A DNA stretch of 35,777 nt from Actinomycetota bacterium (GTDB taxonomy: Bacteria; Actinomycetota; UBA4738; JACQTL01). The first letter of the stretch is position 1, and every line of letters begins with the position of its first letter. The notes under the pieces are model-generated. The model was not told the origin of the DNA and ran no database searches. It saw nothing but the letters and a program-made list of their open reading frames with translations. Shown here one piece after another: positions 11,097 to 14,625 of this stretch. The stretch lies in contig JBKOXF010000043.1 of NCBI GenBank assembly GCA_046724795.1, forward strand, positions 1 to 35,777. The letters run 5' to 3'. The translations under genes were made by a program, and so were the position numbers.

Positions 11097-11450
11097 CTAC
11101 CGCTTCCTCGCTGCGGTCTTCCTGCGAGCGGTGCTCTTGCGAGCGGTCGACTTCCGACGAGCCGGCGCCTTCTTGGCCGTCGACTTCCTCCGAGCGGTCG
11201 ACTTCCTCCGTGCAGGAGCCTTCCTCGCGGTCGTCTTCCGAGCGGTGGACTTCCTCCGAGCGGTCGACTTCCGACGTGCCGGCGCCTTCTTCCTCGCGGT
11301 CGTCTTCCGAGCGGTGGACTTACGGGCCGTCGACTTGCGTGCGGTGGACTTGCGCGCAGTCGACTTCCGAGCGGTCGACTTCCGACGTGCCGGCGCCTTC
11401 TTGGCCGTCGACTTCTTCCTCGCGCTGGATTTCTTCCGGGCGGTGGCCAT
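11097..11450 (-). CDS. ultra-basic low-complexity repeat protein (STARK/APARRK repeats), histone-H1-like
   Basis: 117 aa built only from M, A, T, S, P, K and R. By my count 53 residues are K/R and none are D/E. The ATG at 11450 is preceded by AAAGGGGGTGA. It lies 21 nt downstream of the whiB stop, with a terminator just after. The opposite-strand ORF 11092..11559 is its mirror image and was rejected. Confidence 0.7.
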   Translation of the reverse strand: MATARKKSSARKKSTAKKAPARRKSTARKSTARKSTARKSTARKSTARKTTARKKAPARRKSTARRKSTARKTTARKAPARRKSTARRKSTAKKAPARRKSTARKSTARRKTAARKR

Positions 11451-11471: not shown

Positions 11472-11705
11472 TCATGACGCCATGCGTTTCAGGCGTCGCC
11501 GTTCCCGTTCGCTCATCCCTCCCCACACGCCGTATCGCTCGTCGCGACGGAGCGCGTAGTTCAGGCACTCGATCCGAACGGGGCAGTCCGCGCAGATGCG
11601 CTTGGCTTCTCGGGAGGAGCCGCCCTTCTCGGGAAAGAAGACTTCCGGATCGAACTCTCGACACCGGGCCCGTTCTTGCCAAGGGATGAAGTGATGCACC
11701 GCCAT
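11472..11705 (-). CDS. whiB: WhiB-family Fe-S transcription factor (WhiB/WhiB2 orthologue group)
   Basis: 77 aa: ...WQERARCREFDPEVFFPEKGGSSREAKRICADCPVRIECLNYALRRDERYGVWGGMSERERRRLKR. It has four Cys in the C-x22-C-x2-C-x5-C pattern, the GVWGG turn and a basic tail. It is close to S. coelicolor WhiB as I remember it, and its synteny with fbiA/fbiB matches M. tuberculosis whiB2. Confidence 0.93.
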   Translation of the reverse strand: MAVHHFIPWQERARCREFDPEVFFPEKGGSSREAKRICADCPVRIECLNYALRRDERYGVWGGMSERERRRLKRMAS

Positions 11706-11860
11706 CCCCTCCCCTCGGAATCACATGCGTGTAATTCTGAGGCATGGGACGACGATTTGGCAAGAGGGAATTCCGCGAAGACGCTCCTCCCGACATCGCA
11801 AGAAGAAATCCTTGCAACACCAGCAGGGCTGTTCAAGAGGTTTTGGGGAAAAAGTTGCTG

Positions 11861-11898
11861 GTCAAGAAGCTTGACGATAACGGTCAATCATCTTGACC
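11861..11898. promoter_or_regulatory. two adjacent inverted repeats built on GTCAA/TTGAC
   Basis: GTCAAG-aag-CTTGAC at 11861..11875 and GGTCAA-tcatc-TTGACC at 11882..11898. They lie in the AT-richer whiB upstream region, 156-193 nt upstream of the whiB ATG. Confidence 0.5.
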
Positions 11899-11949
11899 GA
11901 AACGGCGTCACAGCGCGCGATCGGGGGGTGGAAGGCGCGACAGAACCGC

Positions 11950-12061
11950 TGTGGAGAACGTGAGGACAGTGTGAAGAAGGTGAAGGATCGTGTGGAGAAC
12001 GTGCGCGATGCTGTGGAGAACACCGTCGATGTTGTGGAAAACTCTCGATGCTGTGGAAAAC
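11950..12061. repeat. iteron-like array of TGTGGA(G/A)AAC repeats (reverse complement GTT(C/T)TCCACA, DnaA-box-like)
   Basis: Strong copies start at 11950, 11991, 12012 (all TGTGGAGAAC), 12033 and 12052 (both TGTGGAAAAC). All are in the same orientation, with 41, 21, 21 and 19 nt between starts. A degenerate copy, TGTGAAGAAG, at 11970 fills the 41-nt gap. The last three units share the longer form CGATG(C/T)TGTGGA(G/A)AAC. The final copy abuts the fbiC stop codon (12061..12063). Confidence 0.75.
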
Positions 12062-14553
12062 TAGCGGGGCGTCACGGACGATCGATGCACTCGACCGTAC
12101 GTCGTCGTTCGTTCCACCGGCGTGCGACCGACGGCGCGGATCGCGTCGACGAGCTCCTGCGGCTCCTTGCGTATCCCCCATTCCGCCCCGGCCATACGAC
12201 TGATGGTCTCCTCCATCAACGTGCCGCCGAAATCGTTCGCCCCTCCCCGCAAGAGCAGCTGACACGCCTCGATCCCCATCTTCACCCACGACACCTGCAC
12301 GTTGCGGATCCGCCCGTGCAACAGGATCCGCGCGATCGCGTGCATCCGGCGGTTGTCGTCGTGCGTCGGGCCGGGCCGCGCCTTGCCGGCAAGGTAGATC
12401 GGTGAGCTCTGATGGACGAACGGCAGCGGCACGAACTCCGTGAACCCGCCCGACTCGTCCTGGATGCGACCGATGCGCCGGATGTGGGCGACCCAATGAG
12501 GCGGCGCGTCGACGTGGCCGTACATGATGGTGGAGGAGGACGGCAGACCCACGGAGTGGGCCGTCTTCACGATCTCCTCCCATACGTCCGCGGGAAGCTT
12601 GCCCTTCGTCAGGACCCAGCGGACGTCGTCGTCGAGGATCTCAGCCGCGGTGCCGGGGATCGATCCGAGCCCGCGCCGCTTGCACTCCTCCAGGAACTCG
12701 CGGAAGGAGATGCCGAGGCGCGCCGACCCGTTCAGCACCTCCATGGGGCTGAAGGCGTGGATGTGCATGTCGGGGACCCGCGCCTTCACGGCGTCGAGGA
12801 GCTGGAAGTAGAACTCCCCCGGGAGCGAGGGATGCAGCCCGCCCTGCATGCACACCTCGGTGGCTCCGTATCGCCAGGCCTCCTCGGCGCGGTCGGCCAC
12901 CTCGTGGAGCCGGAGCGTGTAGGACTCCGGATCGACCTCCCGCTGGGCGAACGCACAGAACCGGCACCCCGTGTAGCAGACGTTCGTGAAGTTGATGTTC
13001 CGGTTCACCACGTACGTGACGTCATCCCCCACGGCGTCGCGCCGAAGGTCGTCGGCGATCGCGCACATCGCCTCGAGAGCTGCCCCCTCCGCCTCGAACA
13101 TGGCGACGGCCTGGGCCTCGGTGATGTCGTCTGGGCGCCCGGCCGTGGCTTTCTTCAGCGCGATCTCGATCTGACGGTCCAACCTGGCACGGTCGCGCGG
13201 ACGGGCGTACCACTCGCGCGTCGCCGTGACCTCGATCGCGTCCCAATCGCCGTAGACGTCGAGCGTGTCGTCCCGAAGGGACCCGTTCGGGCCCTTCGAG
13301 AAGGTGAGCGCGATGTGCCGAGGTTTCCACTGCACGTCCGGGTCCTGCCACGCGATCGGTGCGGGCTTCGTCCCCTCGCGGGCCAGGCCGTCCTCGGCAG
13401 CGAGCGCGGCGACCGGCTTCTGCATCTTGCCGGCGATCCACGGATCCGGTCGCCGCGCGAACTCGGGCTGCGCCGCGAGCCGCTCCCGGAGCGTGAATCC
13501 CCGCTCCCCCGTCGCCACTGCCAGGCGGTAGAGCTGCGGCCAGGCCTTCTCCGGGTTCACGTGATCGGGCGTGAGCGGCGAGACGCCGCCCCAATCGTCG
13601 ATACCCGCGTCGAGCAGACGCGGATACCGCTCGTCTGAGAGGTTCGGTGGGGCCTGGACGTGCATCCTCGGACCGAACGCGATCCGGGCCACGGCGATCG
13701 CGGCCAGGTATTCGTTCTCTGATGGCGGGCTCGAGCGATGCATCGCCGTGCCCGGCTTGGGCACGAAGTTCTGGACGATGACCTCCTGAACGTGGCGGTA
13801 CTTCCGATGGAGCTCGCGGATGGCGAGGAGCGACTCGGCGCGCTCCCGCAGCGTCTCCCCGATGCCGACCAGGATGCCCGTCGTGAACGGGATCGACAGA
13901 CGGCCGGCGTCCTCGATCGTGCGCAGTCGAGCCGCGGGGACCTTGTCCGGCGAGCCGAAGTGCGGACCGCCCTTCTCCGACAGCCGGTCCGACGACGTCT
14001 CGAGCATCAGTCCCATCGACGCGCTGACGTGCTTGAGACGGGCCATCTCCTCCCACGACATCACGCCGGGGTTCAGGTGCGGCAGCAGGCCCGTCTCCTC
14101 AATGACACGAATGGCTGCGGCTCGGACGTATTCCAGCGTGGAGTCGTAGCCGCGCGCGGCGAGCCACTCTCGCGCTTCGGGGTACCGCTCCTCGGGCCGG
14201 TCTCCCAGCGTGAACAGCGCCTCCTTGCACTCGAGCTCTCGGCCGCGCGTCGCGATGTCGAGGACCTGCTCCGGCGTGAGGAACGGCGCGGCCAGCTTCG
14301 CCGGTGGCTTCGCGAACGTGCAGTAATGGCAGTGGTCGCGGCAGAGCATCGTGAGCGGAACGAACACCTTTCGCGAATACGTCACCGTCGTTCCGTGACC
14401 GAGCTCGCGAAGGCGACGGGCGATCCCCAAGAGGTCATCGAGCGCGCCGCCCGTCGCCCCCAACATGGCCTCGAGGTCGTTCACCGAGAGCGCCTTGCCG
14501 GCGTCGGCCCGCGCGAGCGCTCGCGAGAGGGAATGGTCGACCGCCCTGCCCAT
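12061..14553 (-). CDS. fbiC: FO synthase (7,8-didemethyl-8-hydroxy-5-deazariboflavin synthase), CofG+CofH fusion
   Basis: Two radical-SAM clusters, CRDHCHYCTF and CYTGCRFCAF, in one polypeptide of about 830 aa. The track ORF 12061..15078 is over-extended. I prefer ATG 14553 because it has a -10 element exactly 7 nt upstream (leaderless geometry). ATG 14586, with AAGG 3 nt upstream, is the alternative. Confidence 0.92.
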   Translation of the reverse strand: MGRAVDHSLSRALARADAGKALSVNDLEAMLGATGGALDDLLGIARRLRELGHGTTVTYSRKVFVPLTMLCRDHCHYCTFAKPPAKLAAPFLTPEQVLDIATRGRELECKEALFTLGDRPEERYPEAREWLAARGYDSTLEYVRAAAIRVIEETGLLPHLNPGVMSWEEMARLKHVSASMGLMLETSSDRLSEKGGPHFGSPDKVPAARLRTIEDAGRLSIPFTTGILVGIGETLRERAESLLAIRELHRKYRHVQEVIVQNFVPKPGTAMHRSSPPSENEYLAAIAVARIAFGPRMHVQAPPNLSDERYPRLLDAGIDDWGGVSPLTPDHVNPEKAWPQLYRLAVATGERGFTLRERLAAQPEFARRPDPWIAGKMQKPVAALAAEDGLAREGTKPAPIAWQDPDVQWKPRHIALTFSKGPNGSLRDDTLDVYGDWDAIEVTATREWYARPRDRARLDRQIEIALKKATAGRPDDITEAQAVAMFEAEGAALEAMCAIADDLRRDAVGDDVTYVVNRNINFTNVCYTGCRFCAFAQREVDPESYTLRLHEVADRAEEAWRYGATEVCMQGGLHPSLPGEFYFQLLDAVKARVPDMHIHAFSPMEVLNGSARLGISFREFLEECKRRGLGSIPGTAAEILDDDVRWVLTKGKLPADVWEEIVKTAHSVGLPSSSTIMYGHVDAPPHWVAHIRRIGRIQDESGGFTEFVPLPFVHQSSPIYLAGKARPGPTHDDNRRMHAIARILLHGRIRNVQVSWVKMGIEACQLLLRGGANDFGGTLMEETISRMAGAEWGIRKEPQELVDAIRAVGRTPVERTTTYGRVHRSSVTPR

Positions 14554-14570
14554 CGCGGCGAGCCTAGCAC
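14554..14570 (-). promoter_or_regulatory. candidate extended -10 GTGCTAGGCT positioned for a leaderless fbiC mRNA
   Basis: The minus strand reads GTGC-TAGGCT-cgccgcg-ATG. The TANNNT hexamer is at 14566..14561, followed by a 7-nt discriminator and then ATG 14553. Confidence 0.4.
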
Positions 14571-14625
14571 CCGCGACGTGAAGCATGACCTTGCCGCCGT
14601 CAAGCCCAGCAAGGAGACTGGCCAC

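Follow-up and report, generated by a model that had tools for sequence, protein, structure and literature searches.

A tandem array of candidate DnaA boxes between fbiC and whiB in an uncultured soil actinobacterium

A 35,777-nt stretch of DNA from an uncultured soil Actinomycetota (referred to here as the window; all positions are those of the whole stretch) carries, between fbiC and whiB, six co-oriented tandem repeats that match the binding site of the replication initiator DnaA. We hold it to be an evenly balanced question whether this array is a non-oriC DnaA-box cluster, of the type found at Bacillus subtilis sda, that modulates whiB. The boxes themselves, their match to DnaA specificity, their conservation amid diverged flanks, their tandem expansion, their position relative to the whiB start and their phasing with two nearby palindromes were observed directly. 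From the sequence we infer that DnaA, rather than another protein, would be the binder of the boxes, and that its binding would alter whiB transcription, in either direction. Replication status may in this way feed into a cell-division regulator, via the array upstream of whiB.

The array and its match to DnaA specificity

A first-pass annotation of the window, made by reading the sequence without database searches, had placed an array of DnaA-box-like repeats between fbiC and whiB. Pfam searches confirmed both genes, which lie on the - strand. The five strong copies of TGTGGA(G/A)AAC that had been listed were exact: the motif starts on the + strand at 11950, 11991, 12012, 12033 and 12052 and occurs nowhere else in the 35,777 nt (0.06 copies expected). 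A scan of the window with TTNTCCACA returned the identical five sites and no others (0.14 expected). The annotation was also correct in describing an extended form shared by the last three units (12012, 12033 and 12052), which reads CGATGYTGTGGARAAC, and in stating that all copies point one way at steps of roughly two helical turns; the measured spacings are 19–21 nt, the start-to-start steps along the array being 20, 21, 21, 21 and 19 nt. Tandem Repeats Finder (TRF) reported a period of 21 nt, 5.6 copies and 73% matches. When the copy at 11970 is included, the six boxes span 111 bp at a mean spacing of 20 nt, a high local density, and are separated by gaps of 8–12 bp.

Two degenerate copies had been proposed in addition. 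The copy at 11970 proved to be a good box, scoring higher with a mycobacterial DnaA matrix than any other 9-mer in the window. The copy at 11927, which reads CCTTCCACC on the - strand, lacks the final A, is not conserved in relatives and carries five single-nucleotide polymorphisms (SNPs) in one strain variant; it was dropped as a seventh member of the array. The same six-copy array, unchanged in length, was recovered in four independent metagenome assemblies (L003, L004, L006 and L009) and in two further sequencing runs, and it is therefore real and stable rather than an assembly artefact. The copies arose from one unit by tandem duplication, so the five occurrences observed against 0.06 expected overstate their independence. 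The independent evidence for the array is its conservation across species, rather than the number of copies within the window.

Read on the - strand, which is the transcribed strand of fbiC and whiB, the boxes conform to TT(T/C)T(C/T)CACA, with TTTTCCACA present twice, TTCTCCACA three times and TTCTTCACA once. High-affinity DnaA boxes have the sequence TTATCCACA in Escherichia coli and B. subtilis and TT(G/C)TCCACA in Mycobacterium tuberculosis and Streptomyces, and the boxes of analysed origins seldom differ from these at more than two positions (PMC4285127). All six boxes of the array fit TT(A/T/C)T(C/T)CACA, and the perfect boxes, including those of relatives, vary only at position 3 (T, A or C). 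Eight of the nine positions agree exactly with the DnaA box, and the sole variable position is the one known to be tolerant. We also scored the 71,538 9-mers of the window with the matrix of Hicks et al., which was built from biochemically defined mycobacterial oriC boxes (PMC7738170, table S10). The array holds the four best 9-mers, and all six boxes rank among the top 13; a scan at a threshold of 12 gave no discrimination. Together with the conservation of the boxes amid diverged flanks (see below), the consensus fit, the restriction of variation to position 3 and the matrix ranks argue for the DnaA-box family, as the first-pass annotation had proposed.

The arrangement of the boxes was compared with that of an E. 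coli-type double box, in which two boxes lie 2–3 bp apart, and this class was rejected given the wider gaps measured here. No weak box was found 11–12 nt upstream of the strong boxes, except for TCATCCACA (one mismatch) in the related locus L007; at the same spot L008 has ACATCCACA, with two mismatches. The RNA of the array shows no stable structure (fold z = 0.16) and no credible Rfam match, and no similarity to the array was detected in 72,556 plasmids.

Conservation and expansion of the module

Related loci came from three sources. Looking up the exact WhiB protein yielded ten loci that share the gene order, all from soil metagenomes (L001–L010, loci of the box-bearing clade in which the WhiB protein is identical). 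A metagenome pattern scan gave 13 loci, four of which were relevant, and added the haplotypes L091 and L102. About 65 metagenome-assembled genomes (MAGs) labelled 'Actinomycetota bacterium', with WhiB identities of 88–97%, were retrieved in a scan of species-representative genomes. The order fbiC then whiB is kept in nearly all relatives (about 70 loci). Spurious GC-rich open reading frames (ORFs) mislead an ORF-based definition of the spacer between the two genes, which we delimited by the conserved RTTTY motif of FbiC.

In an FbiC tree the window falls inside a well-supported clade (100/99). Among the seven haplotypes that could be compared in fbiC (clade members together with L102), FbiC proteins are 83–92% identical and fourfold sites 50–65% identical; judged by these values, divergence within the clade is at the species level, with synonymous sites near saturation. 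A two-box module, AGTT(T/A)TCCACA followed by AGTTATCCACA at 18–20 nt start to start, is present in eight species-level haplotypes, and all of its boxes are perfect save the first box of L091. The spacer between the boxes is 8–11 nt long and variable in sequence, and the flanking DNA cannot be aligned apart from the two box islands. Box 1 begins 0–6 nt past the fbiC stop codon in all clade members; in the window it is abutted by the TAG at 12061–12063. TTATCCACA itself was found in seven relatives, comprising members of the clade and its allies.

The number of boxes differs between species. L001, L002, L005 and L102 have two, L091 has one perfect box and one with a single mismatch, L007 and L008 have three, and the window species has six. 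In alignments, box 3 of L007 corresponds to the promoter-nearest box of the window, which indicates that the array grew by internal tandem duplication. In the reconstruction that these alignments give, an ancestral two-box pair expanded to three and then to six boxes by tandem duplication of a unit of about 21 nt. Inside the window array the unit tail GCATCG has decayed to CGATCC, CTGTCC and GCGGTT, while the boxes have stayed intact. Within-species SNPs across the array occur at 11948, 12005, 12022, 12023 and 12024; all of them lie in spacers and none falls in the 60 box bases.

Outside the clade, once the loci were re-anchored on the fbiC C-terminus, only L026, L028, L046, L060 and L062 had a co-oriented perfect box at the 3' end of fbiC, and in three of these (L026, L060 and L062) the box sits within an extended fbiC reading frame. 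A count of three perfect boxes in out-clade spacers, against 0.25 expected, was discounted: L028 and L046 are sisters, and the box of L053 lies in a different, T-rich promoter element. Conservation in relatives, a point raised by the first-pass annotation, proved to be partial, in that eight haplotypes with diverged flanks keep the two-box module and most of the wider lineage lacks the boxes.

Across 365 kb of lineage DNA, two perfect boxes no more than 100 nt apart occur nowhere else, and most of the single boxes there are two codon-constrained look-alikes in fbiC. Matches to TTATCCACA and TTTTCCACA at -450 to -700 in relatives (L013–L076) were rejected as regulatory boxes, as they are located inside fbiC and code for G-V-I-H-N and W-V-F-H-I. 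These coding look-alikes would mislead a naive DnaA-box scan; the window has R-I-R-N at this place and no box.

Relation to the whiB promoter region

The fbiC–whiB spacer of the window is 355 nt long. The region upstream of whiB follows one plan throughout the lineage: two palindromes of the form GTCAA-N5-6-TTGAC, a T-rich element, a distal promoter and a second promoter-like site (Table 1). The palindromes stand 6 nt apart, and the pair is present in most of the approximately 20 related whiB spacers that were read, which represent diverse branches. Lying just ahead of the distal whiB promoter, they are likely the tandem operators of a putative dimeric regulator.

The sequence separating the last box from palindrome 1 is not conserved. 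Its length is 50–53 nt in six clade members, 40 nt in L102, 29 nt in L091, 48 nt in L026, 60 nt in L062 and 72 nt in L060. With the clade collapsed to one value, the distances fall into a single helical phase (Rayleigh R 0.78, p 0.018, n = 6), a statistic that comes from six partly related lineages and from landmarks picked after the data had been seen, for which reason we grade the helical phasing of the boxes with the operators as suggestive. Such phasing would suit a face-of-helix contact between a box-bound protein and the operator or promoter complex, and it would not be expected of a pure sink or of a roadblock. A regulatory link between the array and whiB appears to gain some support from this phasing of the last box with the operators.

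Transcript data place the array relative to the whiB start. Contigs of whiB RNA from eight soil and rhizosphere metatranscriptomes end at 11713–11792, and none extends beyond 11792. This fits a start of the whiB messenger RNA (mRNA) at about 11792–11801, from the distal promoter, with a leader of about 90 nt. Given that start, the array would lie 150–260 nt upstream, in promoter-side DNA outside the whiB mRNA. From the other side, RNA contigs of the fbiC end run into the array, covering 11971–12169 in one metatranscriptome (X28) and 11957–12192 in X51, a run whose type is not on record. No RNA contig covers 11793–11956. No intrinsic terminator was found after fbiC, and RNA coverage of the fbiC 3' end is too thin for mapping transcript ends. 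In soil metatranscriptomes, whiB mRNA is seen readily.

Two further elements were noted in this region. A conserved T-rich element, CTTTTTCCCCAAAAC, is located between palindrome 2 and the -35 and reads as a perfect TTTTCCACA in L002 and L053, where it is probably a chance variant of an UP-like element and not a DnaA box. An inverted repeat of 8 nt at 11718–11737, GAATCACA-N4-TGTGATTC, is perfect in many relatives; the window copy carries a single mismatch (TGTAATTC). The repeat is conserved in most of the lineage, overlaps the proximal -10 CAGAAT and just precedes the Shine-Dalgarno sequence; it could be an operator or a leader hairpin.

Table 1. Coordinates of the candidate boxes, the flanking genes and the whiB promoter elements
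Feature	Position	Strand	Sequence and remarks
DnaA box 1 (candidate)	12052..12060	-	TTTTCCACA; begins one base past the fbiC stop; homologous to box 1 of relatives, AGTTTTCCACA
DnaA box 2 (candidate)	12033..12041	-	TTTTCCACA; in relatives TTATCCACA, a perfect consensus box
DnaA box 3 (candidate)	12012..12020	-	TTCTCCACA
DnaA box 4 (candidate)	11991..11999	-	TTCTCCACA
DnaA box 5 (candidate)	11970..11978	-	TTCTTCACA; one mismatch to TTNTCCACA; top 9-mer of the window by the mycobacterial matrix
DnaA box 6 (candidate)	11950..11958	-	TTCTCCACA; promoter-nearest; aligns with box 3 of L007 and L008; ends 52 nt before palindrome 1
Palindrome 1	11882..11898	.	GGTCAAGATGATTGACC, GGTCAAG-N3-(A)TTGACC; conserved across the whole lineage
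Palindrome 2	11861..11875	.	GTCAAG-ctt-CTTGAC; conserved across the lineage
Distal whiB promoter	11808..11836	-	-35 TTGAAC (11836-11831), 17-nt spacer, -10 AAGGAT (11813-11808); relatives TTGMAN-N17-NASGAT
Proximal promoter-like site	11734..11763	-	TTGCCA-N18-CAGAAT; counterpart in relatives
whiB	11472-11705	-	77 aa, WhiB/WhiB2 type; Pfam Whib, E 2e-28
fbiC (FO synthase, ~854 aa)	12061..14625	-	Radical_SAM and CofH_C domains; start inferred from gene calls in identical loci

Proposed role of the array and alternative explanations

Under the explanation that we favor, two same-direction boxes at the fbiC 3' end (AGTTTTCCACA, then 8–11 nt, then AGTTATCCACA) would represent the ancestral module, kept by selection in the soil clade. 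Tandem duplication of the unit of about 21 nt would have produced three boxes in one branch and six in the window's species. DnaA would occupy boxes that are about two helical turns apart and hence on one face of the DNA. From 150–260 nt upstream, and in phase with the two palindromic operators, it could form a loop to RNA polymerase or the operator-bound regulator, or cooperate with either, and so modulate the distal whiB promoter. Expression of WhiB, a division and sporulation regulator, would then depend on the level or activity of DnaA. A stronger version, in which DnaA directly controls whiB in soil Actinomycetota through a module held in register with the operators and tuned from two to three to six boxes by tandem amplification, is put forward tentatively, as something possible rather than probable.

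Several observations speak against a DnaA input to whiB. About 55 of 60 related species have no boxes despite a common fbiC–whiB order, common operators and common promoters, which implies that the boxes are dispensable for basic whiB control and specific to one lineage. No box cluster was found at 14 whiB loci of other actinobacteria. Mycobacterial DnaA was mapped to five sites by chromatin immunoprecipitation sequencing (ChIP-seq) and IDAP-seq, none of them at whiB2 (PMC7738170). Since most relatives with the fbiC–whiB order are boxless and the mycobacterial mapping lacks a whiB2 site, the array is, on this comparative evidence, not part of a general actinobacterial circuit. In E. coli, DnaA binds in vivo nearly only to box pairs 2–3 bp apart (PMC11317965), against gaps of 8–12 bp here. 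A distance of 150–260 nt is far for direct promoter control, the box preference attributed to the lineage is an assumption carried over from other bacteria, and the phasing statistic carries the limits of lineage and landmark choice given with it.

The rival explanations are, in descending weight, another direct-repeat binder, a DnaA sink, a roadblock, a neutral minisatellite, a Rho-loading 3' untranslated region (UTR) and iterons. If another sequence-specific protein recognized direct repeats about 20 bp apart, the likeness to DnaA boxes would be coincidental. We think this unlikely, but still worth serious weight: conserved, co-oriented, operator-phased boxes show that something binds, not what; the conserved block AGTTWTCCACA reaches to a 5' AG, beyond the 9-mer; the gaps are unlike those of the E. 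coli double box; and most relatives are boxless though all bacteria have DnaA. Another binder would, however, leave unaccounted for the exact agreement at eight of nine box positions with variation only at the tolerant one, and the recurrence of TTATCCACA itself in seven relatives of the clade and its allies, and no clade-specific regulator gene adjoins the array. To our knowledge, the motifs of PhoP, GlnR, CRP, BldD and WhiA do not fit the boxes. An MtrA site was also tried and rejected, as the MtrA motif consists of GTnACc half-sites with an 11-bp period (PMC6265350), whereas GTnAC is absent from both strands of the boxes and the period here is 19–21 nt. DnaA itself might bind the array merely as a sink or reservoir, like E. 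coli datA or Streptomyces D78, and so tune initiation without any effect on whiB. Non-oriC titration clusters are known in E. coli, Streptomyces and Bacillus, the rise from two to six copies raises binding capacity, and the array is far from the promoter. We nevertheless regard a mere sink as improbable, because two boxes, the number found across most of the clade, would have very little titrating capacity, the position is bound to one intergenic site in several lineages, and helical phasing with the whiB operators is unexpected for a pure sink.

We assign a low probability to a roadblock, in which DnaA bound past the fbiC stop would block read-through RNA polymerase and insulate the whiB promoters, like the E. 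coli asnC–mioC box. Such a role would account for the position of box 1 just past the fbiC stop in all clade members, it has a precedent in asnC (cited in PMC11317965, references 27 and 28), and it is compatible with the lack of an intrinsic terminator after fbiC and with the entry of fbiC RNA into the array (11971–12169 in one metatranscriptome, X28, with 11793–11956 uncovered). In L026, L060 and L062, however, the box lies within the fbiC frame, so that a block there would yield mRNAs without a stop codon; fbiC RNA coverage is too thin to define 3' ends, and phasing with the operators would be unneeded. The repeats could also be a functionless minisatellite, in which a unit resembling a DnaA box by chance was amplified by slippage, as suggested by the tandem make-up of the six copies (period 21 nt, 73% matches), by copy numbers that differ between species and by the lack of the array in most relatives. 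This too has little to recommend it, since lineages with nearly saturated synonymous sites still keep the two-box module, the spacers have decayed around intact boxes, the SNPs avoid the boxes, and copy number is stable over independent samples of the species. It is very improbable that the array acts at the RNA level, as an unstructured 3' UTR rich in C and poor in G on which Rho would load to terminate fbiC. The RNA strand does have an excess of C (+ strand GC skew +0.30 over 11900–12099), is unstructured (z = 0.16) and lacks an intrinsic terminator, but Rho loading needs composition and not an exact motif of 10–11 nt conserved across species, and the motif of the array is a DnaA box.

Least probable, and already contradicted, is an iteron function, with the array serving a plasmid-type origin or a secondary origin of replication. 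The geometry does suit the first-pass term 'iteron-like', as five to six direct repeats recur every 19–21 bp beside the least GC-rich stretch of the window. The term does not hold further: no rep, dnaA or dnaN gene was found in the window or in any fetched related locus (dnaA was sought by tblastn with the M. smegmatis DnaA of PMC7738170, figure S2), plasmids gave no match, about 70 loci keep the chromosomal gene order, relatives have just one to three copies, and the AT-richer stretch corresponds to the promoter and leader of whiB. Assignment to the oriC class was rejected on similar grounds, namely the missing dnaA, the fbiC and whiB flanks in those 70 or so loci, relatives with one to three boxes or none, and the same identity of the AT-richer stretch.

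Comparison with known DnaA-box clusters

The closest experimentally characterized analogue of the whiB array is the B. subtilis sda cluster, with five boxes in 85 bp at a mean distance of 17.3; the mean distance is 21 in the thdF cluster, and both clusters are experimentally stable (Ishikawa et al. 2007, PMC2533591). The sda gene is a sporulation checkpoint gene whose expression needs DnaA binding at the upstream cluster, and non-oriC clusters such as those at thdF and vpr are conserved in some species and absent in others (PMC2533591). Like the sda cluster, the whiB array has several boxes within about 100 bp at a similar density and is intergenic, upstream of a developmental or cell-cycle regulator. 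Its patchy conservation among relatives resembles that of the thdF and vpr clusters. In contrast to sda, for which binding and regulation are proven, the whiB array is a candidate cluster; it also differs in being made of strictly co-oriented tandem duplicates, in its Wbl-family candidate target and in belonging to a different phylum.

In mycobacteria, non-oriC DnaA sites lie at Rv0010c-Rv0011c/crgA, dnaB-rplI and Rv3843c (Hicks et al. 2020, PMC7738170). The whiB array is likewise actinobacterial, intergenic and away from oriC, and the same matrix ranks its boxes at the top. Unlike the array, none of the five mycobacterial sites is at whiB2, and the crgA site has a palindromic box pair where the array has direct repeats. 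The E. coli asnC–mioC site shares with the array a box between the end of the upstream gene and the next promoter (Stringer et al. 2024, PMC11317965, references 27–28). The strong E. coli boxes listed include several TTATCCACAg and one TTTTCCACAg (PMC11317965); relatives in the clade share these TTATCCACAg and TTTTCCACAg forms, and box 1 of the window reads TTTTCCACAg. The E. coli sites are close to promoters and consist of double boxes with gaps of 2–3 bp, whereas the array is 150–260 nt upstream with gaps of 8–12 bp. The array also shares with plasmid iterons its one-orientation direct repeats with a period of 19–22 bp, and differs from them in having no Rep gene, no plasmid similarity, a fixed chromosomal context and a core that is a DnaA box. 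E. coli datA and Streptomyces D78 are non-oriC clusters of high-affinity DnaA boxes; both are mentioned in PMC2533591 and PMC4585315. The array resembles them as a non-oriC cluster that could hold DnaA, and differs in that its ancestral state would have been just two boxes.

WhiB/WhiB2 has a central place in the regulation of division in Streptomyces and mycobacteria, no DnaA input to it is known, and how replication is coupled to division or sporulation in actinobacteria is poorly understood. If DnaA does act on whiB through the array, the B. subtilis DnaA–sda replication-to-development checkpoint would have a counterpart in actinobacteria, and the replication initiator would for the first time be linked to a Wbl protein. 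A selectively maintained, phased module before whiB provides a concrete hypothesis open to testing in a heterologous host, and it illustrates the emergence of such an input in one lineage and its growth through tandem duplication of boxes. Its value is limited by its confinement to an uncultured clade, and non-oriC DnaA-box clusters are already an established kind; to these the array would add whiB as a target and an unusual origin by tandem repetition.

Neighbouring genes and related loci

The collection of relatives included two contigs under other taxonomic labels, both with WhiB identities of 88–92%. L055 (JBLMXP010000168.1, labelled Planctomycetaceae) carries this actinobacterial whiB with the adjacent fbiC, and L073 (CAZOQX010000007.1, labelled Candidatus Saccharibacteria) carries this actinobacterial whiB. 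Both contigs are probably binning contamination in the respective MAGs.

The other neighbours of the array are a GT2 gene and a gene for a basic repeat protein. The latter, at 11097–11450 and downstream of whiB, encodes a lysine/alanine-rich protein with a weak Pfam HC2 match. Metatranscriptome contigs at 90% likeness skip 90–242 nt within 11144–11397 of this gene, which indicates that the length of the repeat in the lysine/alanine-rich protein varies among related organisms.

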